In this document: in pieces, positions 12,480 through 34,702 of the stretch | How the letters are laid out: each line of letters begins with the position of its first letter | Numbering within the stretch: position 1 is the first letter of the stretch | Assembly (NCBI GenBank): GCA_963726495.1 | Contig: CAVSCP010000006.1 | Coordinates: forward strand, 140,312-204,311 | DNA: 64,000 nt | Source: an uncultured Acidimicrobiales bacterium | GTDB lineage: Bacteria; Actinomycetota; Acidimicrobiia; Acidimicrobiales; DATKAS01 | Reading direction: 5' to 3' | Notes under the pieces: generated by a model | Databases searched by the model: none | What the model was told of the DNA's origin: nothing | The model's input: the letters and a program-made list of their open reading frames with translations, nothing else | Translations under genes and position numbers: made by a program

Positions 12480-12509
12480 GGAGCCGGCACTCGGGGGGGT
12501 GCCGGCTCC
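12480..12509. terminator. Perfect 11-bp stem hairpin between convergent genes (bidirectional terminator candidate)
   Basis: GGAGCCGGCAC-tcgggggg-GTGCCGGCTCC, read directly. A second 8-bp hairpin TCGCCGCC-gct-GGCGGCGA lies just upstream at about 12452-12472. Both sit between the + gene stop (12426) and the - gene stop (12533). Confidence 0.5.
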
Positions 12510-12532
12510 GGCGCGTCCGGGCTCAGGCGCGG

Positions 12533-13549: not shown

Positions 13550-13550
13550 G

Positions 13551-14489: not shown

Positions 14490-14544
14490 CGGTGCTCTCT
14501 AGCATGTCGCTCGATGACGACTGGCCCGCCGACCTCGAGACCTG

Positions 14545-16075: not shown

Positions 16076-16106
16076 CCGCGCAACGGGAATCGTTGCGCGG
16101 TAGGGT
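16076..16106 (+). promoter_or_regulatory. Perfect 10-bp palindrome plus TAGGGT -10-like box directly upstream of the antitoxin gene (candidate autoregulatory operator / near-leaderless promoter)
   Basis: CCGCGCAACG-ggaat-CGTTGCGCGG (16076..16100) abuts TAGGGT (16101..16106). The GTG start is at 16113, only 6 nt after the -10 box. Confidence 0.4.
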
Positions 16107-16112
16107 GATCGT

Positions 16113-16475
16113 GTGACCGTCGACCGTGCTCGCCGCCCCCGCCAGCCCTCCGTGGGCGAGCGGGTCGCGCTCGCGGCTACCCGCGTCGGCGGCCAGAACG
16201 AGCTCGCGCGGCTGCTCCAAGTCTCGAAGTCCGCTCCGAGCCGGTGGCGCACCGGCGCGGACCATCCCTCGCCCGAGGCCATGCGAGCGCTGCTGGCGCT
16301 CGACTACGTGCTGGCCCGGCTCGCCGAGGTCATGACGCCCGAGCAGATCCAGGTCTGGCTGACGAGCCCGAACCCGCACCTCGCGGGCGCTCGCCCAGTC
16401 GACGTCGTCGTGTCTCGCGGTCCGCTCGCGGTCGACGACGCAATCGTCGCGTTCGAAGACGCCGCGCCGGTGTGA
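16113..16475 (+). CDS. Xre-type antitoxin with C-terminal DUF2384-like domain (MbcA/ParS class)
   Basis: 120-aa intact ORF. HTH-like GGQNELARLLQVSKSAPSRWRTG, then WLTSPNPHLAGARPVDVV. The stop overlaps the next gene start (GTGA at 16472). Confidence 0.7.
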   Translation: MTVDRARRPRQPSVGERVALAATRVGGQNELARLLQVSKSAPSRWRTGADHPSPEAMRALLALDYVLARLAEVMTPEQIQVWLTSPNPHLAGARPVDVVVSRGPLAVDDAIVAFEDAAPV

Positions 16476-17012
16476 TCGTCTGGCGCATCGCGCCGATCGA
16501 CACTCGGGCGAGGGCGCGGCCGGCCCTTCCATCCCCTGTACGTGCCTGCGCCATCGGGTCGGCATCGGCTCGACAACACCGACCTCTACTCGGTGCTGTA
16601 CGCGTCGGGCGAGCCCGCCGGCGCGGTCGCCGAGGCATTCGCGTCGTTCTCGCGGTGGGGTGAGTTCTTGCTCGACCATCCCCGAGGCGCGCGCCGGCGT
16701 CTCATCGCGCTCGACGTCCCGAACGACCTCGCCGTCCTCGACCTCGACGAGGCTCGCGCCCTCGTGCGACGCCGGCTGCGCCCGAGCCAAGTCGTGACCC
16801 GCGACCGCGCGGTCACGCAGGCGTGGGCACGCCGAGTGTGGGAGGAGGCCGAGTGGGCAGGCGTGCGGTGGTGGTCGTATCACGACCCCCGGTGGACGAC
16901 CCTCGGCCTCTGGGCGACCGGCGGGATCTCGGTGGCGAGTCTCGAGGAGCTGTCCGCGACCCATCCCGCGGTGCTCGAGGCCGCCGAGGTCATGCTCCGC
17001 ACCTGGACATGA
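16472..17012 (+). pseudogene. RES-domain toxin (MbcT/ParT class), frameshift near 16510
   Basis: VIVWRIAPIDTR (frame of ORF 16244..16663) joins ORF 16542..17012: SGRHRLDNTDLYSVLYASGEPAGAVAEAF (R...E region), LAVLDLDE and GVRWWSYHD (S region). Confidence 0.7.
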
Positions 17013-17029
17013 CCGGAGGAAGATGAGGC

Positions 17030-17768
17030 ATGGCGACGAGCTGGGACGCCCACGCGCTACGCGGCCTCGCTCCGCCGTGACGACGAGCGGTTGCTGCGGG
17101 CCGCGCAGCGTCGGCTCGGCGCGCCCGTCCCCTCGTGTCCCGACTGGACGATGGCCGATCTCGTGTTCCACGTCGGCCGCGTGCACAGCTTCTGGGGTCA
17201 GATCGTCGCGGGACGGCTGACCGACGCGCGGGACTCCGTCGAGACCGAGCGTCCGGCTGACGACGCGCTCCTCGACTGGTTCCGCGAGACCTGCGACAGC
17301 GTCGCCGACGTCTTGGACCACGCGGACCCTGGCGACGAGGTCTGGTCGTGGTCGGCGCAGAAGGACGTCGCGTTCGTGCAGCGCCGCATGGCGCAGGAGG
17401 CGGCCGTGCACACATGGGACGCGGTCGGCGCCGTCGGGGCACGGGAGCCCATCGATGCGGACCTCGCGGTCGACGGCATCGACGAGTACATCGACCTGTT
17501 CATGCCCGTCTGGGTGAGGCAGCCCGTCGACCCTGGGCCCTACTCGGTGTCGTTGCGAGCCTCGGATCGGCCCACTCGCTGGTGGCTCGAGGTGCGCCAC
17601 GGCGAGCTCTCGACCTCGCGCGGCGGGCTCGTCGCCGATGCGATCGTCTCCGGCACCGCCTCGGACCTCCTCCTGCTCCTGTGGGGACGGGCCGAGCCTG
17701 CGGCGCTCGACCTCGAGGGCGAGCCGACAGCGCTCGACCGGCTGCTCGCCCGCACGATCATCAACTGA
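17030..17768 (+). pseudogene. Maleylpyruvate isomerase-family mycothiol-dependent enzyme (DinB-like), frameshift near 17055
   Basis: ORF 17091..17768 has PSCPDWTMADLVFHVGRVHSFW...RRMAQEAAVHTWD. ATG 17030 (MATSWDAH) is one frame off and meets a stop after 16 codons. Confidence 0.7.
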
Positions 17769-17771: not shown

Positions 17772-18224
17772 TCAGCCGGACAGCGTCACGCGGATCGGGA
17801 GCCGCTTGTGCTCCTCGCTGTCGATCTCGACGACGAAGTTGTACGCGTCGGCCTTCTGGAAGACGACGCCATCGAGGTTGAGCGCGACGACCACGATCTG
17901 CTCGTCGCCCGCAGGAAGCAGGGCCGGACGGCCGACGGTGAACTGCCCGCTGACGCCGTACATCTTCCCGTCGTCCGATGGCGCACCGGGCGGCGCGTCG
18001 CCGAGCGCGACCCGTCCCCCGTCCGAGTCGTCGAGGCGCACGTCGAAGCGGTGCATGGTGTTCGTCGCCGTGTACGGCACGTGGATGATGAGCCCGAGCC
18101 CGATGCGGGCATGGCGCACCGGCAGCTGGGGCGTGGTGATGACGTTCCAGCCCGCACCCTGCGCGTAGAGCTTCCCGTCGACCGCGACGACAGAGTCGGC
18201 GACGAACGCGTCGAGATCCATCAA
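17772..18224 (-). CDS. Hypothetical protein (150 aa), family not recognised with confidence
   Basis: Intact ORF with normal composition for this window (MMDLDAFVADSVVAVDGKLYAQGAGWNVITTPQLPVRHARIGLGLIIHVPY...). It is tightly packed between neighbouring genes. Confidence 0.6.
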   Translation of the reverse strand: MMDLDAFVADSVVAVDGKLYAQGAGWNVITTPQLPVRHARIGLGLIIHVPYTATNTMHRFDVRLDDSDGGRVALGDAPPGAPSDDGKMYGVSGQFTVGRPALLPAGDEQIVVVALNLDGVVFQKADAYNFVVEIDSEEHKRLPIRVTLSG

Positions 18225-18234: not shown

Positions 18235-19161
18235 TCACGCGGGAGGCTCGGCGCCTCGTTGCGCGGTGATGCGCGTGTAGTGCTCGGGTTGGCGGTGGCG
18301 CGCGAAGTCGAAGACTGTCGTCTTGTAGCTGTCGCAGAGCGACAGGTCGCATCGAGCGACCGCGACTTCGTCGCCGAGCGTGGTGCACAGCGCGGCGATC
18401 TCTCCGCTCGGCGCGATGATCGCCGAGCCGCCGATCATCGGCACCCCTTCCTCGTCGCCCGCCTTCGCGACACCCACGACCCACGTGCCGTTCTGATAGG
18501 CGCCCGACTGCATCACGAGGTGGTTGTGGAAGTCGCCCAGCCGGTCGTGCTCGGGTGCCGGCGGGTTGTGGACCGGCGTGTTGTAGCCGATCAGCACGAG
18601 CTCGGCGCCCTGCAGCCCGAGCACCCGGTAGGCCTCGGGCCAACGACGGTCGTTGCAGATCGCCATGCCCACGACGCCGCCGAACGCGCGCCACACCTGG
18701 AAGCCGTCGGGCCCGACCTCGAAGTAGCGCTTCTCGAGATGCTGGAAGGCGCGCCACGGCTCGTGCTGGTCGTGGCCGGGCAGGTGCACCTTCCGGTAAC
18801 GGCCGATCTCACGCCCGTCGCGGCCCACGAGGACCTGCGTGTTGTAGCGGTGCCCCTCGGGCGTCTTCTCCGCGAAGCCGAGGCAGAACCCGACGCCGAG
18901 GCGCGCCGCTTCGTCGAACAGCGGCTTCGTGTCGACAGACGGCATCTCGGTCTCGAACCACGAGTCGATCTCGGCCTCGTCCTCGAAGAACCATCGCGGG
19001 AAGAACGTCGTCAGCGCGAGCTCGGGGTAGACGACGAGCTCGGCACCGCGACCGTGCGCGTCGTGCAACAGCGCCAGCATGCGCTCGACGACGTCGGCGC
19101 GCGAGTGGTCGCGCTGCACCGGTCCCATCTGCGCGGCTCCGACGGTGACCGCACGACCCAT
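18235..19161 (-). CDS. N-carbamoyl-D-amino-acid hydrolase (nitrilase superfamily, DCase-like)
   Basis: Intact 308-aa ORF. Long stretches match the Agrobacterium D-carbamoylase as I recall it: YPELALTTFFPRWFF, YRKVHLPGH, FQHLEKRYFE, ICNDRRWPE (catalytic Cys), GYNTPVHNPP and RHRQPEHY. Confidence 0.9.
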   Translation of the reverse strand: MGRAVTVGAAQMGPVQRDHSRADVVERMLALLHDAHGRGAELVVYPELALTTFFPRWFFEDEAEIDSWFETEMPSVDTKPLFDEAARLGVGFCLGFAEKTPEGHRYNTQVLVGRDGREIGRYRKVHLPGHDQHEPWRAFQHLEKRYFEVGPDGFQVWRAFGGVVGMAICNDRRWPEAYRVLGLQGAELVLIGYNTPVHNPPAPEHDRLGDFHNHLVMQSGAYQNGTWVVGVAKAGDEEGVPMIGGSAIIAPSGEIAALCTTLGDEVAVARCDLSLCDSYKTTVFDFARHRQPEHYTRITAQRGAEPPA

Positions 19162-20429
19162 CTATGCCTCCTCCCGCTCGGCCAGCTCGAGCAGCACTTG
19201 GAGCAGCACGTTTGCTCCCGCCTCGAGATGCTCGGGATCGGTGTGCTCGGCCGGGTTGTGGCTGATGCCACCACGGCTCGGCGTGAACACCATCGCCGCC
19301 GGACAGACGCGCGCCATCATCTGCGCGTCGTGCCCCGCTCCCGACGGCAGGCGGTGCACCGAGTAGCCGAGCCGCTGCGCGGTCTTCTCGACGAGCAGCA
19401 CGGTGTCGGGATCGAACGTCACGGGATCGAACCGCGCCAGCGAGCGGCTGCTGATCTCGACGCCCTCCTTACGCTCGAGCTCGCGGCAGAAGTCCGCGAG
19501 CGCGGCCTCGGCGTCGGCAAGGGCAGCCGCATCGGTGTTGCGGAGGTCGACTGTGAGCACGGCGCGACCCGGGATCACGTTCACGAGGTCGGGATGGAGG
19601 TCGAGGCGCCCGACGGTCGCGACTTGGTGCCCGCCGAGCTCGTTCGCGAGACGACGCACGTACGTCACGATCTCGGCGGCGGCCTGCCCGGCGTCGCGCC
19701 GCATCGACATCGGCGTCGTGCCGGCGTGGTTCGACTGACCGACGATCGTCAGCTCTTGCCAGGAGATGCCCTGCACTCCCTCGACCACGCCGATCGTGGT
19801 GTCGCGCGCCTCGAGCACGGGTCCTTGCTCGATGTGGAGCTCGACGAACGCCGCCGGCGCGGGTCCCGGGCACGGCAGCGGACCGGCGTAGCCGATGCGC
19901 ACGAGCTCGTCGCCCACAGTCGGGCCGTCGATGGCCGCGACGTCGAGCGCCTCCTCGAGGGGGATGCCACCGACGTAGGTCGAGCGAGCCCATCATGTCG
20001 GGCTGGAAGCGCGAGCCCTCCTCGTTCGTGAAGAACGCAACCGCGAGTGGCCGTCGCGTGGTGACGCCCGCACCTTCGAGCACCTCGACGACCTCGAGGC
20101 CGGCCAGCACGCCGAGGTTGCCGTCGTAGCGACCTCCGGTGCGCACGGTGTCGATGTGGGAGCCCGTCATCACCGGCACGCCCGGCTCGCGTCCGGCGCG
20201 CGTGCCGACGACGTTGCCCATCTCGTCGATGCCGACGTCGAGGCCGAGGTCGCTGCATCCACGTGACGACGAGGTCGCGGCCTTCCTTGTCGGCGTCGGT
20301 CAGCGCGAGGCGGTTGTTGCCGCCTCCTTCGATCGGGCCGATCTCCCCGAGCGCGGCAAGCCTGCGCATGAGCCGGGCACCGTCGACGCGCAGGTCGCGC
20401 AGGTCGGAGGCCGCCGGCATCACGGACAC
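19162..20429 (-). pseudogene. M20-family hydantoinase/carbamoylase-type amidase (allantoate amidohydrolase / N-carbamoyl-L-amino-acid hydrolase), 2 frameshifts
   Basis: ORF 19749..20429 N-terminus; ORF 19469..20221 (MGNVVGTRAG..VMTGSHIDTVRTGGRYDGNLGVLAGLEVV..FFTNEEGSRF); ORF 19162..19917 (HIEQGPVLE...SNHAGTTPM...SGAGHDAQ...SRGGISHNPAE). Joins near 20240 and 19990. Confidence 0.8.
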
Positions 20430-20434
20430 GGCAC

Positions 20435-21238
20435 TCAGGGACGCGGCAGCGTGAACGCGCGCACCTCGACCAGCGACGCGCCGACCGCAGCGACGGCGGC
20501 CTCGAACATCGCCTTGCCCCGCTCGGACGTCGCGCCCGTCGGGTCACCGATGTGGCCGCTCGGGCCGAAGTCGTTCGACAGCCATCCGAAGCTCACCTGG
20601 CCGCCGAACCTCACGTACCGGTTCTCCGCGAGGTCTTCGGGCACGTTGCGGAACCCCGCGTCCATGTCGACGAGCTCGGGTCGCAGGTGCAGCATCATCG
20701 AGGTCTCGCCGATGCCGCCGTGCACACCCATCCCCCGCTCGTCGGCCGGGTCGGTCTCGGACTTGCCTCCCTGGTCGGGCGGCACGAACGGATGCGCGAG
20801 GAACGTCATCAGCCCGTACTTCAGGCGGAGCTCGCGACAGGCGACGTTCAGCAACGACGAGTTGCCGCCGTGACCGTTCAGGAACACCACGCGCTTCGCC
20901 GGGAGCGTCGCCAACGATCGCCCGATGTCGTCGAGCACAGCGAGGAGCGTCGTCGCGGACAGCCAGACGGTGCCGGCCGACCAGGCGTGCTCGTTCGACT
21001 TCGTGTACGCGAGGGCCGGGAGCAGCCAGAGGTCGAGCTCGTCGCCCCGCTCCTGCACCACTGCCTCGGCAACTTCACCGGCGATCACGTAGTCCGTCGA
21101 GAACGGAAGGTGTGGTCCGTGCTGCTCGATCGCGCCGAGCGGCTGCACGAGGATCGAGTCGGGGCCGATGAGGTCGGCAACCTGCGGCGCGCGAAGGTCG
21201 GCCAGGTGTCGGGTCGCGTGTCGTGTGCGGGACGCCAT
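20435..21238 (-). CDS. Creatininase-family amidohydrolase
   Basis: Intact ORF 20435..21247, with likely start MASRTRH at 21238. Motifs: GAIEQHGPHLPFSTD, FLNGHGGN and HGGIGETS. Confidence 0.85.
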   Translation of the reverse strand: MASRTRHATRHLADLRAPQVADLIGPDSILVQPLGAIEQHGPHLPFSTDYVIAGEVAEAVVQERGDELDLWLLPALAYTKSNEHAWSAGTVWLSATTLLAVLDDIGRSLATLPAKRVVFLNGHGGNSSLLNVACRELRLKYGLMTFLAHPFVPPDQGGKSETDPADERGMGVHGGIGETSMMLHLRPELVDMDAGFRNVPEDLAENRYVRFGGQVSFGWLSNDFGPSGHIGDPTGATSERGKAMFEAAVAAVGASLVEVRAFTLPRP

Positions 21239-21242
21239 TTCA

Positions 21243-21258
21243 GGCATCGTACGATGCC
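21243..21258. promoter_or_regulatory. Perfect 16-bp palindrome GGCATCGTACGATGCC in the 22-bp gap between divergent genes (operator candidate)
   Basis: Read directly. It sits between the creatininase start (21238, minus) and the flavoenzyme start (21261, plus). Confidence 0.35.
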
Positions 21259-21260: not shown

Positions 21261-22809
21261 ATGGACTACGGCGCGATCGTCGTCGGGGCAGGGCACAACG
21301 GCCTCATCTGTGCCGCGTATCTCGCGAAGGCCGGCATCCCGACGTTGCTCGTCGAGGCCCGGTCCGACGTGGGTGGGTGCGCGTCGACGGTCGACGCGCT
21401 CGGCGCTCGCGTGAACATCTGCAACTGCGACCACGCCGTGTTCCGCACGACGCCGGTCATCGACGAGCTCGATCTCGGCGCGCCACGGGTTGCGCTACCT
21501 CGACGTCGAGCCCGCCCAGGTGCAGGCGTCGTGGGACGGCGACGCGGCGTGGCCCGCCTTTCACGACGTCGACCGCACGATCGACGCGCTCGAGCTGATC
21601 CACCCCGACGAAGCCGACGGCTACCGCCGCTACTGCGCGGCTGCGATCCCCGTCGCCGAGCTCGTGCTCGAGATGGCGTGCGAGCCGCCGAGTCGCCGGT
21701 GGCGTCCTCAAGCGCCTCGCCGCCCGACGAGCACGTGGCGCCGCGACGATGCTCCGTTGGAGTCGCCTCACCGCGGCCGACGTGCTGCGGTCGTTCTTCT
21801 CGCGCGAGGTCGTGATGGGCCCCGCGGTGACCACCGGTCCCGCGGTGTGGGGGCTCTCGCCGTTCACCCCTCACACGGGCCTCGGCGCGCTCACCTACGC
21901 GATGAAGCACGCCGGACGCGTCGGGCCGTCCCGTGGGTGGCAGCGGGGCGGTGCCGGCAAGCATCCTCGGCGCGTTCATCGGCGCGGGCGGCACGCTGCG
22001 CTCGGGCGCGCGAGTCACCGGCATCGTCTGTGAGGGCGACCACGTCCGCGGCGTCGAGCTCGCCGACGGCACCGTGATCGAGGCGCCCCTCGTGGTCTCG
22101 GCGTGCGATCCTCGCGAGACCTTCGTGCGCTGGCTGACCGGCGCTCCCTGCGTCGGCGTCAGGGGTGATCGAGCGTTGGCGCCACGCACCGGTCGAGGAC
22201 GGCTACGAGTCGAAGATCGACGCGATCGTCACCGGCATCCCCCGCTTCCGGTCGCTCGACCACGCCCAGTTCAGTCGGCTCGGCGTGGACGAGCCCGCGA
22301 TCGGCACGACGATCGTGGCGCCGGCCCTCGCAGACATGGCCACCGCGCACCGGCTGATCGACCAGGGCCTCATCGCGGACCGACCCATGTTCTTCGCCAA
22401 CATCCCCTCGGTGCTCGACGAGACGATGCGCGTCGGCGACTCGCATGTGCTCAGCCTCGAGACGCTCTACACGCCCGTACGCGCTGAAGGGCGGATGGGA
22501 GCAGTCGAGTGAGCCCGAGCGGTGGCTGCAGCGCTTCGCCACGCTGGTGGAAGGCACGTTCCTCGACACCGTCGAGCGCTGGCGGGCGATGACACCGCTC
22601 ATCTACGAGCGGGAGTTCAACCTTCCCGCGGCCACGCGACCGGGTTCGGCGGTTCGCCGCTGTCCGCGATGCTCGGCCGGCCGCGCGAGCTCACCCGCTA
22701 CGAGACCCCGGTGAAGGGCCTCTACCTCACCGGCGCGGCGACCTATCCGGGAGCGGGCGTGTGGGGCGCGAGCGGACGCAACGCGGCGACGGTGATCTTG
22801 CGCAGCTGA
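21261..22809 (+). pseudogene. Phytoene-desaturase-family NAD(P)/FAD-dependent oxidoreductase (CrtI-like), at least 7 frameshifts
   Basis: MDYGAIVVGAGHNGLICAAYLAKAGIPTLLVEARSDVGG (GxGxxG). It continues through ORFs 21490, 21749, 21933, 22165, 22445 and 22522, ending [25 protein letters not shown]. Confidence 0.7.
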
Positions 22810-22879: not shown

Positions 22880-23350
22880 TCAGGCGATCGGCTCCTGGCT
22901 GCTCCAAGGGAACTCGATCCACTTGTCGGTCTCGCGCCAGACGTACTCGCACTTCACGACCGATCGCGGCTTCTCGTAGAGGACCGCGCAGCGCACCTCG
23001 CTGACCTTGCCGACGCAGAAGTCCTTCACGAGGGCCAGCGTGTGGCCGGTGTCAGCGACGTCGTCGGCGACGAGCACGCGTGCCTCGGTGAGGTCGACGA
23101 GCTCAGGGGTCGGCGGAAGGATCATCGGGACGTCGAGTCGCTCGTCGATGCCGGTGTAGTACTCGACGTTCATCGTGTACAGGTTCTTGACCGAGAGCGC
23201 GTAGCCGAGGGTCGCGGCCACCAGCAGGCCTCCACGGGCGATGGCGAGGATGATGTTGGGCTCGAACCCGTCCTTGTGGACCATCCGGGCGAGATCGCGC
23301 GACCCCTCACCGAAGTCGGGCCACGTGAGGATCTCCTTCTCCACACTCAT
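22880..23350 (-). CDS. Phosphoribosyltransferase (Gpt-like purine PRT)
   Basis: Intact 156-aa ORF. AIARGGLLVAATL, PRPP loop VLVADDVADTGHTLA and WIEFPW, in the same order as E. coli Gpt. The ATG overlaps the stop of the upstream Moco subunit (ATGA at 23347-23350). Confidence 0.8.
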   Translation of the reverse strand: MSVEKEILTWPDFGEGSRDLARMVHKDGFEPNIILAIARGGLLVAATLGYALSVKNLYTMNVEYYTGIDERLDVPMILPPTPELVDLTEARVLVADDVADTGHTLALVKDFCVGKVSEVRCAVLYEKPRSVVKCEYVWRETDKWIEFPWSSQEPIA

Positions 23351-25644
23351 TCAGCGAACCTACTCGCGAGCGCGATGTCCTGAGGGCGCACCGGCACCCG
23401 TGTGAGCGCCGCGCCGGTGGCATCTCTGATCGCGGCCACCACCGCGGGTGTCGCTGCGATGCACGGCGGCTCCCCCACGCCCTTCGCACCGAGCGGCGCC
23501 TGTGGATCGGGCTCCTCGACGAGCGACACCAGCACGTCGGGAGCGTCGAGGGCGGTCGGCAACAGGTAGTCGGTGAACGACGCGTTGCGGATGAGCCCGT
23601 CGGTCACGACGATCTCCTCCATCACGGCGAGGCCGAGGCCTTGCGCGATGCCTCCTTCGATCTGGCCGACAACCGAGAGCGGGTTGAGCGCACGGCCGAC
23701 GTCCTGCGCGGTCGCCATCTGGATGACCCGCACGAGGCCGAGCTCGACGTCGACGTCGACGACCGCGCGCTGGGCGACGAACGCGAACGCGACGTGGCAC
23801 GCACCCTGGCCGCGCTCGTCGAGCTCTTCGGTGGCGCGGTGCCGGTAGGTCACGGTCTCCTCGAAGTGCTGGCGGGCGGTCGCGTCGGCGACGGAGACCC
23901 GCGCGCCGTCCACAGTGTCGACGACGTCGGTGCCCTCGATCGCCAATCGCACCGGGTCGACCCCCATGCCTGCAGCGACATGCTCGAACAGCCGCTCGCG
24001 CACCGCCGCGGCACGCCATGTCGGTCGCGCCGCCGGACATCCACGTCTGGCGCGACGCAGAGGTCGAACCCGCCGACCCGATCGTGGTGTCCGCCGGCTC
24101 GAGCACGACTTCGTCCACGCCGAGGATCTCGCGTGCGATCTGCGCGGCGATCGTGACGAACCCCTGCCCGACCTCGGCCGTCGCGAGCTTGAGCGAGACG
24201 GCGCCGTCGGCGAGCCGGCAGCGCGCCGTTGCGGAGTCGTCGAACCCTTCGGAGTACATGAGGTTCTTGATCGCGAGCGCATAGCCGACGCCACGCTTCA
24301 CGTGGCCGGAGTCGGCGGTGCGGCCCGCGCCGCCGGGACGAGCGAGCCACGCGCCATCGTCGGCCTCCGGGGGGAGCGGCAACGCGGCGGTCTCGCGCAG
24401 GCAGCGCACCGTGGGCGCCACGCTCTCGAGCCGTTGGCCGGTGACGAGCAGGTCGCCGGTCTCGATCGCGTTGCGCAACCGGATCTCGACGGGATCGAGC
24501 CCGCACGCCAGCCGCGAGCTTGTCGATCTGGCTCTCGTGCGCGAAGCAGGCCTGCTGCACACCGAACCCACGCATCGCTCCGCACGGCGGGTTGTTCGTG
24601 CGCACCGCCCATCCGTCGATGCGGGCGTTCGCCAGCCGGTACGGGCCCTGCACATGCGTGATCGCGTTGATGAGCACCGCGCTGGACGTCGATGCGTAGG
24701 CGCCCCCGTCGAGCACCACTCGGCACTCGAGGTTCACGAGGGTGCCGTCGGCGCGCGCGTGGTGCCGCATCCAGATCGTGCCGGGGTGCCGATGCACGTG
24801 GCCGAGGAACGACTCGTCACGGCCGTAGACCATCTTCACCGGACGGCCCAGACCTCAGCGCGAGCAGGCACACGTGCACTTGCAGGCTCACGTCCTCGCG
24901 CGCCCCGAACGCGCCGCCCACACCGGCGAGCTGAAGGCGCACTCGTTCCTCGGGCAGACCGAGGCACTCCGCGATCTGACGGCGATCCTCGTGCAGCCAC
25001 TGCGTCGAGATGAACAGCTCGACGCCGTGCCCGTCGCTGTCGGGCAGCGCGAGCGCGGACTCGAGGCCGAGGAAGGCCTGGTCCTGCATGCCGATCTCGT
25101 AGGTGCCCTCGACCACGACGTCACCGGCGACGCCTTCTGCACCGCACTCGATGCGCTGGTGGCGGAAGACGTTGCCGTCGGGATGGATCGGGGCCGCCTC
25201 GATGGCTCGCTCGGGATCGGTGAGCGGCTCGAGCACCTCGTACTCGACGATGATCGCCTCGCACGCGCGCCGGGCTGTCTCAGGATGATCAGCAGCAACC
25301 GCGGCGATCGCCTGACCCGCATAGAGCACGGTGTCGGACGCGAACACGGGCTGGTCCGCGCTGATGAGGCCGTAGGTCGCGCCGGGCACGTCCTCCGCGG
25401 TGACGATCACCTCGACGCCGGGGATGCGCCACGCAGGGCTCACGTCGAGCCGGCGGATGCGGGCATGGGGATGCGGCGACCGCAGCGTCTTCCCCCACAC
25501 CATCCCTTCGGCCCAGAGGTCGGAGGAGAACGCGAAGCGTCCCTGCACCTTCGGTGTCGCGTCGGGACGCGTCGGGCTCGCGCCGAGCACGGCGCGATCG
25601 CCGACGACCCGAGTCCCAAGGTCGGTCGTCTCGGTGTCGGTCAC
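23347..25644 (-). pseudogene. Xanthine-dehydrogenase-family molybdopterin-binding large subunit (CoxL/XdhB-like), about 3 frameshifts
   Basis: ORF 24817..25713 from GTG 25644 (VTDTETTDLG..PKVQGRFAFSSD..MQDQAFLGLES..GGAFGARED). ORF 23850..24839 (GGAYASTS..RTNNPPCGAMRGFG). ORF 23360..24655 (GLDPVEIRLRN..GQGF). ORF 23347..24294 (GQIEGGIAQGLG..GAKGVGEPP). The start overlaps the FeS subunit stop (GTGA). Confidence 0.85.
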
Positions 25645-26118
25645 GAGCCGTTCCGCTCTCGGGCCGCGGCTTGCACCGCCGCGAAGATGCGTCCGTAGCC
25701 CGTGCAGCGGCACAGGTTGCCCGACAGCGCCTCACGGATCGCGAGCGGATCGGGGTCGGGCACCCGGTCGAGGAGGTCGTGCACCGCGACGATGAGACCC
25801 GGCGTGCAGAAGCCACACTGCACCGCGCCCTCGGCGACGAACGCGCGCTGCACGTCGCTCAGCGAGCCGTCGCACGTGAGGCCCTCGACGGTCGTGATCT
25901 CGCGATCGACGACCGACGCCGCGAGCACGAGGCACGAGCACGTCAGCGTGCCGTCGACGACGACGGAGCACGAGCCGCACTCCCCCTGCTCGCAGGCGCC
26001 CTTCGCTCCGGGCAGGCCGAGCCGCTCGCGCAAGACGTAGAGGAGGCTCTCCCCCGCCCACGCGTCGTGGACGTCATGCATGCTCACCGTTGATGGTGAG
26101 CCGGTAGTGCTCGCTCAC
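25641..26118 (-). pseudogene. (2Fe-2S)-binding small subunit (CoxS/XdhC-type FeS), frameshift near 26085
   Basis: ORF 25641..26087 has CEQGECGSCSV and QCGFCTPG...CRCTGY. The true N-terminus VSEHYRLTINGEH is encoded at GTG 26118 in the frame of ORF 26074..27030. Confidence 0.85.
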
Positions 26119-26934
26119 GCGGCCGCCACCCTGCGCAGCGCGCGTGCTGCCATGACTTCGACCGCCCGCCGCCGGTATGCCGCGGTCGACCGGTGGTCGT
26201 CGATCGGCCTGACCTCGGCCGCGACTCGTAGACCGAACTCGTCGGGGTCGGCGCTCACGCCGCCGTTGGCCTCGGCCCACTGCTCCGCATCGCGTGCTCG
26301 GATGATCGTGGGGCCGACCGAGCCCGCCGCGACTCTCAGCGCCGCCGCGATCGACGACGAGCGCGAGGTTCGCGATCGCGATCACCATCGCGTTGCGCAC
26401 GCCGACCTTCATGAACTCTTGCGGCCCCTTCGGCAGCGCCACCACCACCTCGGTGACGAGCTCGCCGGGTTGCAGCGCGGTGCGCTTCGGCCCGACCAGG
26501 AAGTCGTGGATCGACAGGACACGCGAGCCGTTGAGCGACCGCATCACGATCGCGGCGTCGAGGGCCGAGAGGACGGGCAGCAGGTCGCCCGCGGGCGACC
26601 CCGTGCCGAGGTTCCCTCCGATCGTCGCCGCGTTGCGGATCTGGGGCGAGCCGACGGTGCGCGCGGCCTGCGCCAGGGCCGGCAGCGACTCGGCCAGCGG
26701 CGGCTGCATCAGCTGCGAGCACGTGACACCGGCGCCCAGCCGCACGGTCTCGCCCTCGATGTCCCACCGACGCAGCTCGTCGACCCGGGCCAGTGCGACG
26801 ACGTCCTCGGGCCGTCGATGGCCGAAGTTCACCTCGACCATGAAGTCGGTGCCACCCGCGAGCACGTGCGCGCCGGGATGCTCGGCGAGCGCCGCGAGGG
26901 CGTCGTCCAGCGTCGTCGGGCTCAGCACGGCCAT
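26115..26934 (-). pseudogene. FAD-binding molybdopterin-dehydrogenase medium subunit (CoxM-like), frameshift near 26340
   Basis: MAVLSPTTLDDALAALAEHPGAHVLAGGTDFMVE...ATIGGNLGTGSPAGD (ORF 26074..27030 from ATG 26934). My re-translation after ALVVD gives AAALRVAAGSVGPTIIRARDAEQW...IDDHRSTAAYRRRAVEVMAARALRRVAAA, with TGA overlapping the FeS GTG. Confidence 0.8.
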
Positions 26935-27019: not shown

Positions 27020-27047
27020 CTGCGCGACACTCCCAGCCGTGATCCGG

Positions 27048-28232
27048 ATGCCGGCCGACGATCCGCTCGGCGCGCTGAAGATCGGACCCGCCGTGCTCGC
27101 CGAGGGCGCGGCTGACGGCGCCCTGGCCGGCACGACGTTCGTCGCGAAGGACCTCTACGACGTCGCGGGCTACCCGACCGGAGCGGGCAACCCTCAGTGG
27201 GAAGCGACCCACCCGGTGCCGACGACCACCTCCTCTGCCGTCACCCGCCTGCTCGCGCGGGCGCGACGCTCATCGGCAAGAGCCACACCGACGAGCTCGC
27301 CTACAGCCTCTCGGGCACGAACGTGCACTACGGCACGCCGGTCAACAGCGCCGCGCCGGGGTGCGTCCCAGGAGGTTCGTCATCGGGATCGGCGTCGGCA
27401 GTGGCGGGCGGGCTGTGCGACTTCGCGCTCGGATCGGACACCGGCGGCTCTGTGCGCGTGCCGGCGAGCTTCTGCGGGATCTTCGGGCTGCGGCCGACCC
27501 ACGGCCGCGTCGCTGCGGATGGCGTCGTGCCGCTCGCGCCGTCATTCGACGCGGTGGGCTGGTTCGCCAACAGCGGCGCTGTCCTGATGCAGGTCGGACG
27601 CGTGCTCCTCGACGCGGACTTCGACGAGACCGCGCACCTGGCGGCGACCAAGCTGGTGCTCGCTGACGACCTGCTCGCGGCGGTGCCCGATGAGGTCGCC
27701 GCGGTGGTCGAGGCGGCAGCGCGAGAAGCGGCCACTCGTCTCGACCTGCAGCTCGAGCGTGGTTCCGTCGCGGACGGCGACATCGCCTCGTGGGCCGACT
27801 GCTTCCGCACGCTCCAACGCGGCGAGGCATGGGCATGCCATGGCGACTGGATCACCGCCACGCGACCGTCGTTCGGCCCGGGCATCGCGCAGCGCTTCGC
27901 CGACGCATCGCACGTCACCCCTGAGGAGGTCGCGGCCGCTCAACGGCGGCGTGTCGAGATCCGAGACCGGGTCGCTCGGAGCACCGCGGGCGGCGTCGTG
28001 TTCGCTCTGCCACCCGCACAGGGTCCGGCCTATCGCGTCGACCTCGAAGGCCCAGCGAAGGAGGCCGTGCGGGCGGGCGCGTTGGCACTCACGTGCGCTG
28101 CCGGCCTCGCGGGCACGCCGCAGGTGACCGTTCACGGCGGCACGGTCGACGCGAAGCCGGTCGGGCTCGGCCTGCTCGGGGGCCCACGGGATGGACGAAG
28201 CGCTCCTCGCGATGGCCGCCGCGCTCGACTAG
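27048..28232 (+). pseudogene. Amidase (amidase-signature family), 2 frameshifts (about 27260 and 28185)
   Basis: ORF 27006..27587 from ATG 27048 (MPADDPL..FVAKDLYDVAGYPTGAGNP). ORF 27197..28651 (GKSHTDELAYSLSGTNVHYGTP..PGGSSSGSASAVA..ALGSDTGGSVRVPASFCG). My re-translation of the end gives HGMDEALLAMAAALD-TAG (28230..28232). Confidence 0.8.
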
Positions 28233-30047: not shown

Positions 30048-31060
30048 TCACACGGCCCAATCTGCAAACGCGTCGATCATGAGCCGGACATCATCGCCCA
30101 GCGGGTACAGGATCGGGCACGTACTTCCGGCGGCGACGTACTCGGCGACCTTCGCGCGGCACTCGTCGGGCGTGCCCGAGGCGGTGATCATCTGCACGAT
30201 GTCGTCGGGCACGAGCTTCGACGCGGCGACGACCTGCTCGTGGGTCGCCGGCCACGTGAGCACCTTGCCGATCTCGTCGAGCAGCGACTCGGGCACGCCA
30301 CGACGCCTTCATGATGTGGGGCTGCTGGCCGAGGTACTGGGTGACGAGGAGGCGCGAGCGCATCGAGCGCGCGGCCGCGATCTTCGTCGAGCGAGCACAC
30401 GACGAGCTGCGGCCGGTCGATCGTCGTCGAGCGTCGCGTCCCGCCTTGGCCGCGCCCCTCGCGAGATGCTCGAGCGCGGTCGCGTTGTACGCGGGAGACA
30501 CGAGGTAGTTGAGGACCACGCCGTCGGCGATCTCGCCCGTGAGCTCCATCATCTGCATGCCCGTGGCGCCGATGTAGATGGGGACGTCCTTCGGCTCGCG
30601 CTCCTGATGCACGTAGTCGAGCTCGACGCCGTCGAGGTGCACGAACTCGCCGTCGAACGTGACGGTCTCGTTCGGCGAGCAGCGCCGCGGACGGCCTCGA
30701 CGATCTCGCGCATGGCCTTGAGCGGCCTCGCCCGGTCGACGCCGACCTTCCGCGGCGAGCGGGTCCCACCACGCGCCGATCCCGAGGATCACGCGACCCG
30801 GGGCGAGGTCGTCGAGGGTGGAGAACGTCGACGCGAGCAGCGCGGGGTTGCGGGTCCACATCGCGACCACGCCGCTGACCGACCTTGATGCGCTCGGTGA
30901 CCGCAGCGAACGCGGCCATCGGCACCGTCGCCTCGCGCACCAGCCGGCTCTCGGCCTGCCACACCGCCTCGAACCCGCGCTCCTCGGCGTACCGCACGTA
31001 GTCCATCGCCTCGCGGAGCGGGTGGGCGTCCTGGAGGTACAGCGCGACGGGTGCGGCCAT
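30048..31060 (-). pseudogene. LLM-class oxidoreductase, 3 or more frameshifts
   Basis: [61 protein letters not shown] (ORF 30188..31192 from ATG 31060). ORF 30091..30870 ([36 protein letters not shown]...[29 protein letters not shown]). ORF 30048..30296 gives the C-terminus. Confidence 0.75.
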
Positions 31061-31067: not shown

Positions 31068-32099
31068 TCATAGCAGCCGGTGGAGGCGCCTGGCTTGCTC
31101 GGCGGCCTGCGCGCGCACCTCGATCGGGTCGACCCGGGTCGCGACGCCGTCGCGCAGCACGACCTCACCGTCGATCTCGACGTCGACGGCACGGACGTCG
31201 GTGGTGAAGGCGAGCGACCACGGATCCATCGCGTCGTACGACCACCGCACGACGTCGCCGCGGGCCTCCGGCACCAGCTGCCATCCGTTCTCGAGCCACG
31301 ACCACGCCGCCTCGGGTGAGGCCTCGACGTCGTCCTCGCGATGACGTACGAAGGCGAGGCGGAACTCGTCGAGCATGTCTGCCCCGATGCCGTCGGTGCC
31401 GAGCACGATCGGGTTCGATCGCGACGCGGGCCTCGCGTAGCCGACGGCGTTGTTCATGTTCGAGCGCGGGTTGTGCGCGATCGTGCCCGGCAGGTCTTGT
31501 TCGAGGTGCACGGCGTGGACGAGCAGCCACGACTCGTCTGCGAGCGCGGCGAGCCGCTTCCCCGCGTCCGAGTCGACCGTCCCCTCGGCGACGTGGATGT
31601 GGACGCCGACGCCGAGGTCGCGCGCGAGGCCGGCGGCCGCCTCGAGCGTCTCGTCGCTGCACGTGAACGCGGCGTGGACACCGACGAGCCCTCGTCCCCC
31701 GCCGCGGAGGAACCGCTCGTTCTCGGCCAGCCCGCGCCGAGCACCCGTCGGCGCCGTGGCGGTCGGTCACGCCGTAGGCGCACACGACCCGCACGCCGAC
31801 CTCGGCGGCACGCGTCGGCGATCACGTCGAGCGAGCCCTCGATCGCGTGAGGGCGACTCGTGATGGTCGACGATCGCAGTCGTTCCGCACTCGAGCGCCT
31901 CGAGCGCGCCGAGCATCGCCGACCACCTCAGCATCTCGAGGTCGAGCGCGACGTCGAGCCTCCACCAGACCTGCTCGAGGATCTCGACGAACGTCGTCGG
32001 TGTGCGCGGTGGCGAAGGCATGCCGCGAGCGAGCGCCGAGTACAGGTGATGGTGCGCGCAGACGAGCCCGGGCGTCGTCGCGCTCACGCGGCGAGTCAC
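31068..32099 (-). pseudogene. ssnA: SsnA-like putative aminohydrolase, about 3 frameshifts, short N-terminus
   Basis: TPGLVCAHHHLYSALARGMP..FVEILEQVWWRLDVALD..GALEALECGTTAIVDHHESP (ORF 31767..32156). VRVVCAYGVTDRHG (ORF 31165..31794). [32 protein letters not shown] (ORF 31068..31511). These parallel E. coli SsnA PGIVCSHNHFYSGLSRGI / LWWRLDRALD / VIDHHASP / HNARSNMNNHVGY / LGTDGIGSDMFEEMKFAF as I recall it. GTG 32099 overlaps the upstream stop (GTGA). Confidence 0.75.
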
Positions 32100-34702
32100 T
32101 CGTCGGTGTCGGAGCCCGACGACGCGCCGCGGCGCATCGGCAGCGTGGAGCGCCATGCGCCGTCGAGGTCGTGCAAGGCGGCAGCCACCGCGCCCGCCGT
32201 GGGCACCAGGCCGATCTCACCGACACCCTTGATGCCGTACGGCGCGTTCGGCTGCGGAGACTCGACGAGGATCACCTCGACGCGCGGCATGTCCTTCGGG
32301 CGGATGATGCCGAGGCTCTTCAGCGTCATGTTCGTCGGCCGGCCCTCGGCGTCGGCCGGGAAGTCCTCGGTGAGCGCGTAGCCGAGACCCATGTGCACCG
32401 AGCCTTCGATCTGGCCCTCGCACAGCAGAGGGTTGACGGCGCGGCCCACGTCGTGCGCAGCGACGACCTTGTCGACGTTGCCACTCTCGCGATCGACGAC
32501 GACGAGCTGCGACGCGTAGCCGAACGTCGAGTGGATCACCGGGTGCTCGAGGCCCTCGGCGAGCGAGTTCGTCCAGTCGACGCGGTACTCGCCCTCGTAG
32601 TCGACGCCCGGCTTGCAGCCAGCGGCGCGCGCGGCCTCGCACGCCGCCTTCACCGAGCCCGCACCCATCAACGTGCCTCGGCTGCCGGTCGTCTGGCCCG
32701 CGCCGAGCTCGCGGGACGTGTCGACGAGCACGCGGATGCGCGTCGGGGTCGACCTGCAGCTCCTCGACCGCGACCTGACGGGCCACGGTGTGCACGCCCT
32801 GCCCCATCTCCGTCCAGCAGTGCCGGACCTCGATGGTGCCGTCCTCCTCGAACCGCACGACCGCGCGCGCGATCTCCTTGAAGCCGTTGCCGAGGCCCGA
32901 GTTCTTGAGCCCGAGGCCGAGCCCGACGGCGGCTCCCGAGGCGACTGCGTCGTCGTAGGCCGGCTTGATCGCGTCGAGGCACGCACGCGCGCCGAGGCAG
33001 CCGTCGTCCATGATCTGACCGGGTCCCCACACCGAGCCCGGGGTCACGACGTTGCGCGCACGGATCTCCCAGCCTGAGATCCCGACCGCGTCGGCGAGGC
33101 GATCGAGCACGCCCTCCATCGCGAACTGCGCCTGGTTCGCGCCGAAGCCGCGGAACGCGCCACACACCGGGTTGTTCGTGCGGGCCGCGATCGAGTCGAC
33201 GTCGATCGCCGGCACCACGTACGGACCACTGGCGTGCCCTGCCGACCGCTCGAGCACCTTCATCCCGACCGAGGCGTACGGGCCGGAGTCGCCGACCATG
33301 CGCGCCCGCAGCGCGGTGAGCCGTCCGTCGTCGTCGCAACCGGCCCAGTACTCCATCCGGATCGGGTGCCGCTTCGGGTGGATCAGCAACGACTCCTCAC
33401 GCGAGAGCGTGCACTTCACGGGCCGCCCGGTCAGCCACGACGCCAGCGCGGTCTGGGCCTGGTTGGACATGTCCTCCTTGCCGCCGAACGCGCCGCCGTT
33501 CGCGACGAGCTCGACCGTCACGCGTCCCGCGTCGATGCCGAGCACCGACGCGATCTGGTCGCGGTCGTCCCAGACCCCCTGGCCTCCCGACCACACGTGC
33601 AGCCCATCGGACCCGTCGGGCAGGACCACCGGCGCGACGAGGGTCGACTCGGGCTCGAGGAACGCGTGCTCGATGCGCTGGGTCTGGAACACCTCGTGCA
33701 CGACGTGCGCGCTCGCCGCCAGCGCGGCATCGACGTCGCCGCGCGCATACGTCGACCGCGACAGCACGTTGCCTTCGAGACCCCACACCGCGTCGTCCGC
33801 GCCGGACGCGATGGCCTGCGCGCGGATCGACGATCGGCGGCAGCGGCCGATAGTCGACTTGGACGAGCTGTGCGGCGGCGCGGGCGGTCTCGCGGTCCTC
33901 CGCGACGACCATCGCGAGGACGTCACCCAGATAGGAGGTGCGCCCGCCTTCGGGGATGAAGATCGGCCAGTCCTTGTGGATCAACCCGACGCGGAGCGCG
34001 CCAGGTATGTCGGCGGCGGTGAGGACGCGCACGACACCCGGCACCGCGGCCGCGGCCGTCACGTCGATGCCGACGACGTCGGCGCGGGCGTGCGCCGCGA
34101 GATGAAACGCGCCGTGGAGCATGCCGGGAAGGACGAGGTCGTCGACATACGGCTTGTCGCCGAGCGAGAGCTCGAGGCCCTCGTAGCGAAGTCCGCTCGT
34201 GCCGACACCGCCGCACGCGGGTGGTTCGACGTCGCCACCCGTGCGCGAGCAGCTCGATCGCATCGAGGATCTTCACGTAGCCCGTGCACCGGCAGAGGTG
34301 CGCGCCGAGGTGGCGCGCCGCGTCTTGACGCGTCAGGTCGGCGCCCTTCTTCGCGATCAGCGCCTTCGTGCGCATCACGATGCCGGGCGTGCAGAACCCA
34401 CACTGCAGGGCGCCGGTCGACGCGAAGACCCTCGCGTAGCGATCGCGCTCCTCGGTGGGCATGCCTTCGAGGGTCGTGATCCCCCGACCGGCGGTCTTGG
34501 CGAGCGACGTCTGGCAGCTCACCTGCGCCTTGCCGTCGAGCAGCACCGTGCAACACCCGCACTGCCCCGACGGCGAGCACCCGTCCTTCGGCGAGAGGAC
34601 GCCGAGCTCCTCGCGCAGCGCGGCGAGCAGGTGGGGATGGTCGCCACGGCACGACACCGAGATGCCGTTGAGCACGAAGGAGACAGGTTCGGCGCCGATC
34701 AC
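32096..34702 (-). pseudogene. Molybdopterin-dependent hydroxylase with fused N-terminal [2Fe-2S] domains and no FAD domain (XdhD/Mop-type), about 3 frameshifts
   Basis: ORF 33923..34702 (CSPSGQCGCCTV, QCGFCTPG, CRCTGY). ORF 33397..34263 (GTSGLRYEGLELSLGDKPYVDD..ADIPG). ORF 32217..33926 (IEHAFLEPES..GGAFGGKED..NNPVCGAFRGFG..EMGQGV). ORF 32096..32986 (GQIEGSVHMGLG..GIKGVGE). The FeS and Moco parts join in one polypeptide near 34250. Confidence 0.8.

Follow-up and report, generated by a model that had tools for sequence, protein, structure and literature searches.

The closest described relative of the system treated here is the reductive degradation of urate, in which XdhD converts urate to 2,8-dioxopurine, YgfK or UacX yields the dihydro form, SsnA gives ureidomethyl-hydantoin and HyuA gives 2,3-diureidopropionate, which becomes 2,3-diaminopropionate and then, by YgeX, pyruvate; the 2-ureido group is removed by YgeW or by the D-aminoacylase-like UacY and the 3-ureido group by YgeY, and an R (D) configuration is proposed for the ureido intermediates (PMC12507026, bioRxiv 10.1101/2025.04.24.650524, PMC12990295). 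A variant of this pathway with an F420 luciferase-family reductase was noted bioinformatically in Chloroflexota by Li et al. (PMC12507026). Herein we analyse a stretch of 64,000 nucleotides from contig CAVSCP010000006.1 of an uncultured Acidimicrobiales bacterium, called the window as a whole (64 kb, G+C content ~70%), in which a homologue of N-carbamoyl-D-amino-acid hydrolase (DCase), an M20-family amidase (M20) and a creatininase-family protein are encoded side by side. This triad is the downstream end of a ~17-kb island of purine/N-heterocycle catabolism at 17.8-34.6 kb of the window. M20 and DCase form a conserved two-gene module, and the creatininase-family gene is in a separate conserved module, where it makes a divergent pair with the gene of a CrtI-like flavoprotein. 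The island as a whole probably encodes a form of the reductive urate pathway via 2,8-dioxopurine that is hydrolytic and linked to F420, and we take the M20-DCase pair to be a part of it.

The triad and its conservation

The earlier note on this DNA, made from the letters alone, had read the three genes as a set on the minus strand, and this is borne out by the coordinates, by the G+C content of third codon positions (GC3) and by matches in Pfam, NCBIfam and the Protein Data Bank (PDB). The layout is as follows.

18235..19161, minus strand: N-carbamoyl-D-amino-acid hydrolase (DCase) homologue, 308 aa
19162..20429, minus strand: M20 hydantoinase/carbamoylase-family amidase, ~421 aa after removing two 1-nt insertions
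20435..21247, minus strand: creatininase-family (PF02633) metallo-amidohydrolase, 270 aa, or 267 aa with 21238 as start

Position 21238, where that note let the triad end, is the second Met of the creatininase-family gene; the gene itself is real, and its full open reading frame (ORF) extends to 21247. By codon-position GC and the ORF listing the coding signal is high in all three genes (GC3 0.88-0.91), and they follow each other with gaps of 5 nt from the creatininase-like gene to M20, 0 nt from M20 to DCase and 10 nt from DCase to the DUF6941 gene behind it. No riboswitch or RNA gene was found by Rfam and tRNA scans of the window.

The DCase homologue matches PF00795 (CN_hydrolase) over its full length (E 5.6e-50, residues 6-280). 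Among PDB entries it comes closest to N-carbamoyl-D-amino-acid hydrolases (8i99, 1.4e-125; 1erz/1fo6 (Agrobacterium)/2ggk at ~1e-110), while other nitrilase branches in the PDB, such as PH0642 and beta-ureidopropionase, are far weaker at 1e-22 or worse. The protein keeps Cys-Asn-Asp-Arg-Arg, and its alignment with 8i99 includes YPELAL, YRKVHLPGH and ICNDRRWPE; FPRWFF and GYNTPVHNPP, which had been pointed out as DCase motifs together with the last two, are in the translation as well. By the Agrobacterium structures, the three aligned motifs supply the Glu-Lys-Cys catalytic triad and the Asn/Arg/Arg residues that bind the carboxylate. By domain, PDB similarity and motifs the protein is a member of the DCase family, for which D-specific decarbamoylation is predicted. 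The identical protein is found in L001 (ENA contig ERZ25039520:contig_23279), the relative that is 96-98% identical to window 8329-29253.

After correction of its frame, M20 scores 400.6 against TIGR01879 (cut-off 204), 484.9 against NF006769 (452) and 432.3 against NF006771 (399), the latter two being NCBIfam subfamily models named 'allantoate amidohydrolase'. Its PDB ranking runs from N-carbamoyl-L-amino-acid hydrolase 8apz (1e-99) and N-carbamoyl-beta-alanine amidohydrolase 8c46 (2e-97) to AllC 1z2l (8e-61). In a neighbour-joining tree it groups with the DCase-associated clade, while the M20s of creatininase-seeded loci without DCase make a clade of their own.

The creatininase-family protein matches PF02633 at E 1.9e-66 (residues 17-256) and stays under the curated cut-offs both of MftE (TIGR03964, 137.9/172) and of creatininase (TIGR04448, 99.8/235). 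PDB creatininases match it at just 5e-17 (residues 27-200), with the metal ligands and the His aligned. These creatininase ligands and His, namely E41, H43, D52, H126, H176 and E181, are kept in at least 98% of 120 orthologues. The protein is thus predicted to be an intact binuclear-metal amidohydrolase that is, by the cut-offs of curated hidden Markov models, neither creatininase nor MftE.

The conservation of these genes was followed in two surveys. Seeding with DCase gave 80 metagenome loci at 66-97% identity, of which 35 of at least 10 kb were counted as long; seeding with the creatininase-family protein gave 83 loci from genome contigs at 59-86% identity, nearly all from Acidimicrobiia. 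M20 is immediately upstream of DCase in 60 of the 80 DCase-seeded loci. The long ones among them contain M20 (29/35), the xanthine-dehydrogenase (XDH) type enzyme XDH2 (21/35), a SsnA-like amidohydrolase (19/35), an F420-type luciferase-like (LLM) oxidoreductase (16/35), a diaminopropionate ammonia-lyase (15/35) and a D-hydantoinase (8/35), with a creatininase-family gene in 1/35 and YgeW/YqeA in 0/35. The creatininase-seeded loci show another company: the CrtI-like flavoprotein in 69/83, mostly upstream and divergent, a phosphoribosyltransferase (PRT) in 56/83, a CodA-like amidohydrolase in 50/83, the other XDH-type enzyme, XDH1, in 41/83, and M20 in 40/83, typically immediately downstream and co-directional. 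A SsnA-like gene is present in 1/83 of them, and diaminopropionate ammonia-lyase, any canonical cyclic amidohydrolase and any AllB- or PuuE-type allantoinase in 0/83.

The long loci also show how the M20-DCase pair is embedded: it is contiguous with the genes of XDH2, the SsnA-like amidohydrolase and the LLM reductase, frequently adjoins diaminopropionate ammonia-lyase too and in some cases a D-hydantoinase. For example in L160, XDH1, M20, DCase, XDH2, the SsnA-like gene, the LLM gene and an amidohydrolase gene make one co-directional array, and L108 has in addition a D-hydantoinase (TIGR02033, 464 vs 393) and a diaminopropionate ammonia-lyase (NF006058, 293 vs 276). Two PALP genes of L168 were considered as diaminopropionate ammonia-lyases and rejected, with no homology at E <=1e-8.

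Co-occurrence of the whole triad in other genomes, which the earlier note had proposed as a check, turned out to be rare. The triad is complete in five loci only, namely the window, L001, L005, L089 and L091; DCase occurs in 1/83 creatininase-seeded loci, and a creatininase-like gene in 2/80 DCase-seeded ones. On the 190-kb contig Ga0604610_0000079 the creatininase/flavoprotein pair is ~90 kb away from a DCase-M20-XDH-SsnA cluster, and on one chromosome the creatininase-like gene is ~850 kb away from the SsnA cluster; therefore the creatininase-like gene is no obligate member of this module. Moreover, 20 of the 28 long M20-DCase loci without a creatininase-like gene are also without a D-hydantoinase, and therefore the M20-DCase pair needs no creatininase-like gene nearby. 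A D-hydantoinase is present in the other 8/28 and in 0/35 loci with a creatininase-like gene, a split that is suggestive and is not taken as a test, since the creatininase-seeded loci are one clade and the comparison is confounded by phylogeny.

The two modules meet on a backbone that is common to L002/L004, L171 and the window, in which genes of a substrate-binding protein (SBP), in some cases PPK2, adenylate kinase (ADK), XDH1, PRT and flavoprotein are followed by the divergent creatininase-like gene and M20, that is SBP-(PPK2)-ADK-XDH1-PRT-flavoprotein<>creatininase-M20. To this backbone the window's clade adds an XDH2-SsnA-LLM-RidA-deaminase block and DCase, and in this clade the creatininase/flavoprotein module sits between the PRT gene and the M20-DCase pair.

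A candidate urate route and its island

The M20-DCase pair is assigned to the urate pathway because its conserved neighbours are other parts of that scheme. Gene identities and gene order are direct observations, and the chemistry that we infer from synteny and homology would run as follows. XDH1 together with an 8-oxoguanine-deaminase-like enzyme would channel purines to urate, XDH2 would take off the 6-oxo group, and the F420-type LLM reductase, as a substitute for YgfK, would dearomatise the ring; the short SsnA-like amidohydrolase would open the pyrimidine ring to give ureidomethyl-hydantoin, and a hydantoin-opening enzyme would turn this into 2,3-diureidopropionate. DCase would then cleave the 2-ureido (D-alpha) group and M20 the 3-ureido (beta) group, leaving 2,3-diaminopropionate, with DCase standing in for YgeW/YqeA or UacY and M20 for YgeY as putative non-orthologous substitutes. 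DCase would fit the 2-ureido step because it is a D-specific N-carbamoyl-alpha-amino-acid hydrolase by prediction, and M20 the 3-ureido step because it is closest to carbamoyl-L-amino-acid and carbamoyl-beta-alanine amidohydrolases. The earlier note had seen in the two enzymes carbamoylases of opposite stereopreference. This is probably the wrong frame: with SsnA, XDH and diaminopropionate ammonia-lyase as syntenic neighbours, a single substrate that bears both ureido groups is the more natural reading, and the two carbamoylases probably act on the two ureido groups of 2,3-diureidopropionate (PMC12507026, PMC12990295).

As for the opening of the hydantoin ring, tblastn queries were the dihydropyrimidinase of a Rhizobium plasmid, hydA, HyuA/HyuB, hydantoin racemase and PuuE-like deacetylases of a Sulfitobacter plasmid, and HyuA of E. 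coli. In all six frames of the 64 kb, no dihydropyrimidinase-type hydantoinase, HyuA, oxoprolinase-type HyuA/HyuB, hydantoin racemase or PuuE-like deacetylase was found, and the sole match, over 73 aa at the N-terminus, was to the 8-oxoguanine-deaminase-like gene; the statement of the note that no hydantoinase is present in the window thus holds for both hydantoinase types. By tblastn over the same 64 kb there was likewise no homologue of YgeW, YgeX, YgeY, YqeA or YgfK. The three amidohydrolase-superfamily genes of the window are all of the deaminase/chlorohydrolase type, that is the one passing an 8-oxoguanine deaminase model, the SsnA-like one and the CodA-like one. As 8/35 long related loci carry a genuine D-hydantoinase, the ring-opening step is really unaccounted for in the window.

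Several points weigh against this assignment. The pathway has been described in anaerobes (PMC12507026, PMC12990295), while the hosts here belong to Actinomycetota of soil and aquatic habitats. At 252-263 bits the SsnA-like protein, a short form, stays under the SsnA cut-offs of 444 and 455, and XDH2 shows no special affinity to XdhD over XdhA. Homologues of HyuA and YgeX are not found in the window, so that two steps of the route are without an assigned enzyme there. Most creatininase-seeded loci have neither a SsnA-like gene nor DCase within 10 kb, and the adjacency of creatininase-like gene and M20 may go back to a single ancestral event with vertical inheritance and not to 40 separate ones.

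If the assignment is true, a hydrolytic, F420-linked form of the gut-anaerobe pathway of 2025 would be widespread in soil and aquatic Actinomycetota. Moreover, D-carbamoylase is an industrial enzyme whose natural substrate, to our knowledge, has never been settled, and the D-2-ureido group of purine-derived 2,3-diureidopropionate would then be this natural substrate.

The island around the triad was drawn from gene maps of L001 and of relatives with intact gene calls (L171, L170), mapped back onto the window. From high to low coordinates it begins with a TPR gene and continues as listed below, with the triad between the flavoprotein gene and the DUF6941 gene.

32108..34600, minus strand: XDH2, fused 2Fe-2S and molybdopterin enzyme, ~830-860 aa, directly upstream of the SsnA-like gene; candidate XdhD analogue
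31071..32087, minus strand: short SsnA-like amidohydrolase, ~338 aa; candidate pyrimidine-ring opener
30057..31060 (approximate, frameshifts), minus strand: luciferase-like (LLM) F420-dependent-type oxidoreductase, ~334 aa
29612..30025, minus strand: RidA-family protein, ~131-137 aa; TIGR00004 66 bits, under cut-off; PF01042 at this position in L170 and L171
28229..29608, minus strand: amidohydrolase passing the '8-oxoguanine deaminase' equivalog NF006055 (582.8 vs 532)
27030..28181, plus strand: amidase-signature amidase, ~379 aa; PF01425 in L001; NF006169 386 vs 391
23350..26934, minus strand: XDH1, xanthine-dehydrogenase-family molybdoenzyme, several frameshifts in the window
22880..23350, minus strand: small phosphoribosyltransferase, xanthine-PRT-like, 156 aa; PF00156 E 3e-17; NF006613 59.7 vs 138
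21261..22806, plus strand: CrtI/amine-oxidase-like FAD flavoprotein, ~515 aa; divergent from the creatininase-family gene
17772..18224, minus strand: DUF6941 protein, 150 aa; PF22091 E 3e-24; final gene of the co-directional run

The same super-cluster is present with intact genes in L171 and L170. XDH2, found by tblastn with E. coli XdhA/XdhD/XdhC, shares 25-26% identity with XdhD and 29% with XdhA; its orthologues, 70-92% identical, adjoin the SsnA-like gene in 21/35 long DCase loci and in L168-L173. Glu606 of XdhD was dropped as a discriminator for XDH2, since plain numbering puts this residue in an XdhD-specific insertion. For the SsnA-like protein, the two SsnA models are at the top of NCBIfam (252 and 231 bits, the next family at 75) though under their cut-offs of 444/455, and it is 33% identical to E. 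coli SsnA (E 2e-40). Its clean orthologue in L160 (350 aa) reaches 262.7 bits, and at E <=1e-20 no models other than those of SsnA match it. The short form covers model positions 58-341/350, and over 7,800 relatives of it are found in databases at E <=1e-30. The best NCBIfam matches of the LLM protein are F420 LLM families, all under cut-off, and its orthologues (70-91% identical) come after the SsnA-like gene in L160, L168 and L169-L173. In the relatives examined, the XDH2-SsnA-like-LLM core always includes the 8-oxoguanine-deaminase-like gene; orthologues of this gene in L005 and L160 pass the model too, and it follows the LLM gene in L168, L169 and L171-L173. The enzyme may be a feeder of urate or a second ring-opening enzyme. 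The amidase gene, on the opposite strand between the deaminase gene and XDH1, fills the slot that D-hydantoinase has in L108-type loci, and it is missing from L005 and L171.

XDH1 consists of an FAD subunit (26175-26934), a 2Fe-2S part (25644-26078) and a Mo part (23350-25644), as read from PF00941, PF01799, PF01315 and PF02738 in L001, from tblastn with E. coli XdhA/B/C and from the mapped L171 proteins. The flavoprotein has 514 aa in L001, where it matches PF01593/PF13450 and is under the cut-off of NCBIfam crtI_fam; in the PDB it matches phytoene desaturase 4dgk (2e-13). Only 13 nt separate the start codon of the creatininase-family gene (21247) from that of the divergent flavoprotein gene (21261), a spacing that implies putatively leaderless or overlapping divergent transcription. 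A DUF6941 gene comes after DCase only in the window's closest relatives, L001, L087, L089 and L094.

Beyond DUF6941 there are a toxin-antitoxin pair, LLM genes, a NitT/TauT-like ATP-binding cassette (ABC) transporter, the CodA-like amidohydrolase and GGT. The toxin-antitoxin pair, of Xre/RES type, lies with an MDMPI-family gene at 16100-17768 on the plus strand, just downstream of the operon. The other genes make up a second module of N-heterocycle type at 6610-14491 (GGT, CodA-like amidohydrolase, NitT/TauT-like transporter and two LLM genes), which is conserved beside the creatininase orthologue in most Acidimicrobiia loci; no NCBIfam model matched the binding protein of this transporter. 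On the other side, at 37600-47400 on the plus strand, three tandem paralogous SBP_bac_5 genes precede those of two permeases and two ATPases (an oligopeptide-type ABC transporter), and the flank of SBP, PPK2 and adenylate kinase also borders the island in L002, L170 and L171. A dispersed intergenic repeat of ~92 nt with the palindrome GGCGGCGCAATGCGCCGCC, resembling repetitive extragenic palindromes or miniature inverted-repeat transposable elements (REP/MITE-like), is found at window 36433-36529 and 48064-48153, at L001 16703-16793, L005 13987-14077 and L002 6241-6306. L001 carries it at a site where the window has none.

Readings of the creatininase-family gene

We commit to the view that the creatininase-family protein is a hydrolase of the same N-heterocycle catabolism. 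Tentatively, it may open a ureido-substituted hydantoin or another cyclic ureide that feeds M20; that the substrate is specifically ureidomethyl-hydantoin, and not another amide, is doubtful. Such a ring-opening role is plausible because the gene has a conserved slot upstream of a ureidohydrolase and those loci contain no canonical cyclic amidohydrolase. Rival candidates for ring opening are the 8-oxoguanine-deaminase-like amidohydrolase, the amidase in the hydantoinase slot and an unlinked hydantoinase, and other hydrolases of the window, that is the amidase, the '8-oxoguanine deaminase' and the CodA-like enzyme, are equally available.

Among the other explanations, it is quite possible, though short of probable, that the creatininase-family gene and the flavoprotein gene are an independent module for another imported N-heterocycle or amide, the adjacency to M20-DCase being a by-product of clustering. 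To it would also belong the genes at 6.6-14.5 kb for the ABC transporter (NitT/TauT-like), the CodA-like amidohydrolase, the LLM proteins and GGT. The usual partners in the creatininase-seeded loci agree with it, as these are the flavoprotein (69/83), the CodA-like gene (50/83) and mostly the ABC transporter, against 1/83 each for DCase and SsnA-like, and so do the Pfam maps of L002-L004, the unlinked modules on contig Ga0604610_0000079 and the place of the window's M20 in the DCase-associated and not the creatininase-associated clade. However, the creatininase-like gene is inside the XDH1-PRT-...-M20 backbone and away from the transporter, and its tight co-directional packing with M20 is kept over wide divergence. 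Moreover, the M20 of the creatininase module is a sister clade of the DCase-linked M20, suggesting related ureido chemistry.

The earlier note had proposed the creatininase-family enzyme as a non-canonical ring opener for the carbamoylases. Taken as an ATP-independent hydantoinase that opens ureidomethyl-hydantoin or a hydantoin like it, directly feeds M20 and DCase and replaces HyuA, this is rather unlikely, and only part of the case for it stands. No canonical hydantoinase is encoded in the 64 kb, though one is present in 8/35 related loci, and the creatininase-like gene and D-hydantoinase never share a locus (0/35 vs 8/28), an anticorrelation which is confounded by phylogeny. The gaps of 5 nt and 0 nt suggest a single transcript, the triad is kept down to 67% creatininase-family identity (L091), the creatininase-M20 adjacency recurs in 40/83 loci and the catalytic residues are conserved. 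The triad is rare, however, and the constant partner of the creatininase-like gene is the flavoprotein (69/83) and no carbamoylase. On one contig it lies ~90 kb from the DCase cluster and on one chromosome ~850 kb from the SsnA cluster, and 20/28 long M20-DCase loci do with neither a creatininase-like gene nor a D-hydantoinase. The family itself speaks both ways: it has ring-opening members, creatininase and IolN, and it has a non-ring hydrolase, the MftE peptidase; another one is the ArfB deformylase. A literature search for links of the creatininase family to hydantoin, carbamoylase or XDH clusters gave nothing relevant, and in the two pathway papers neither creatininase nor carbamoylase is mentioned (PMC12507026, PMC12990295).

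A bolder form of the same idea, which we hold to be unlikely, is that the PF02633 protein would be a third, ATP-independent class of hydantoin-ring amidohydrolase acting on ureido-substituted hydantoins (ureidomethyl-hydantoin, possibly allantoin), replacing HyuA in an actinobacterial, F420-driven and wholly hydrolytic form of the reductive urate pathway in which the CrtI-like flavoprotein and RidA replace diaminopropionate ammonia-lyase. If true, this would be a new reaction type for PF02633. For the two steps without an assigned enzyme in this clade, the opening of the hydantoin and the fate of diaminopropionate, this protein and the flavoprotein paired with it are concrete candidates.

An oxidative ureide route is improbable. 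Allantoin is 5-ureidohydantoin, and in such a route M20 would be an allantoate amidohydrolase and the creatininase-family enzyme an analogue of allantoinase, with the flavoprotein acting up- or downstream. The two NCBIfam models passed by M20 bear the fitting name, XDH1 as a producer of urate is a backbone neighbour, and none of the 83 loci has an AllB- or PuuE-type allantoinase. M20 is much nearer, however, to the carbamoyl-amino-acid and carbamoyl-beta-alanine hydrolases (1e-99) than to the solved AllC (8e-61), the Pfam maps of L001-L004 and L171 are without the families of uricase, HIU hydrolase and OHCU decarboxylase, and DCase would have no role.

Even less credit can be given to a classical cluster for 5-substituted hydantoins and D-amino acids, with its hydantoinase elsewhere and with D- and L-carbamoylases acting on racemic N-carbamoyl amino acids. 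Though DCase is very similar to industrial DCases and M20 to L-carbamoylases, the window is without hydantoinase, racemase and hydantoin permease, and the conserved neighbours (XDH, SsnA-like, LLM, purine-type deaminase, PRT and diaminopropionate ammonia-lyase) are unlike the hyu-type set of the Sulfitobacter plasmid.

Finally, two inserted bases, one near 20253 and one near 19981, divide the M20 ORF of the window among three frames, as seen in the frame plot and the three-frame translation. A genuine pseudogene, and with it a triad that is a decaying remnant, is scarcely credible in spite of these two frameshifts and was rejected, since L001 is sound at both sites and has three other 1-nt indels in the same gene, indels occur throughout (the alignment of the window with L001 has 78 gap openings over 20.9 kb), the GC by codon position stays strongly coding across all three pieces, and in L089, an Illumina-derived relative, M20 is intact (416 aa, overlapping the start of DCase). 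Most genes of the window change frame internally by a frame-aware Viterbi path; for example the flavoprotein gene is in five pieces (21261-22806), and the Mo part of XDH1 (23350-25644) and XDH2 (32108-34600) are in four each. Because L001 is intact where the window is broken and broken elsewhere, and because the ORF of L089 is intact, the M20 frameshifts are likely to be errors of an error-prone, probably long-read assembly and not gene decay, and therefore any call of a pseudogene in the window is unsafe. The Illumina-derived L160, L108 and L168, and also L171, served as clean references; L005 was dropped as one, its own SsnA ORF being frameshifted with only residues 150-323 matching the model.

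Comparison with known systems

The creatininase-family protein shares the PF02633 fold family with the creatininase of Pseudomonas putida (PDB 1J2T/3A6x) and with MftE, and the metal ligands and the catalytic His align. Unlike the P. putida enzyme, the window protein has GHGGN instead of GHYEN, and the Trp residues by which creatininase sandwiches creatinine are not aligned. As for a mycofactocin context, no radical-SAM or mft genes are found in the gene maps of L001-L004 and L171.

Classical hyu clusters join DCase to hydantoinase, racemase and transporter. For instance the hyu cluster on a plasmid of Sulfitobacter sp. SK012 contains a racemase, a DCase with ~60% identity to that of the window, the dihydropyrimidinase hydA and HyuA/HyuB, while the purine-type neighbours of the window are absent from such clusters. 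Nearer to the window is plasmid pRACO34Ab of Rhizobium sp. ACO-34A (CP021374.1, ~117-136 kb), with the order ammonia-lyase-M20-DCase, a dihydropyrimidinase and an XDH-like enzyme. Its M20-then-DCase pair is abutting as in the window, at 57-63% (M20) and 60% (DCase) identity. Unlike the window, it has dihydropyrimidinase and ammonia-lyase and is without creatininase-family gene and CrtI-like flavoprotein, and the stretch shown has no annotated SsnA or LLM. DCases of the industrial type are habitually found beside M20 and diaminopropionate ammonia-lyase, in Proteobacteria too. This pairing across phyla hints at purine-derived diureidopropionate as a natural substrate of DCase.

The Chloroflexota variant shares with the island a PF00296 LLM in place of YgfK/UacX beside SsnA; the paper that describes it makes no mention of CN_hydrolase/DCase or creatininase-family genes (PMC12507026), and the hosts here are Acidimicrobiia. 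The reductive urate cluster of E. coli, C. difficile and C. sporogenes consists of XdhD/YgfM, YgfK or UacX, SsnA, HyuA, YgeW+YqeA or UacY, YgeY and YgeX (PMC12507026, bioRxiv 10.1101/2025.04.24.650524, PMC12990295). It differs from the island in that the island's reductase is an F420-type LLM and not YgfK/UacX, its SsnA-like protein is a short form of 338-350 aa under the family cut-off, and 2-ureido cleavage is proposed for a DCase of the nitrilase superfamily and not for a carbamoyltransferase/carbamate kinase pair or a D-aminoacylase. The island's M20 is of the AllC/carbamoylase subfamily without a tblastn match to YgeY, HyuA and YgeX are not found in the window, and the hosts are metagenome-assembled genomes (MAGs) of Actinomycetota, many from soil MAG series. 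As in the described cluster, an XDH-family enzyme adjoins a SsnA-like amidohydrolase and a reductase, two enzymes are available for two ureido groups, and many related loci also have D-hydantoinase and diaminopropionate ammonia-lyase. Altogether the most fitting place for the island is with the reductive urate pathway cluster already described, as a probable hydrolytic variant linked to F420.

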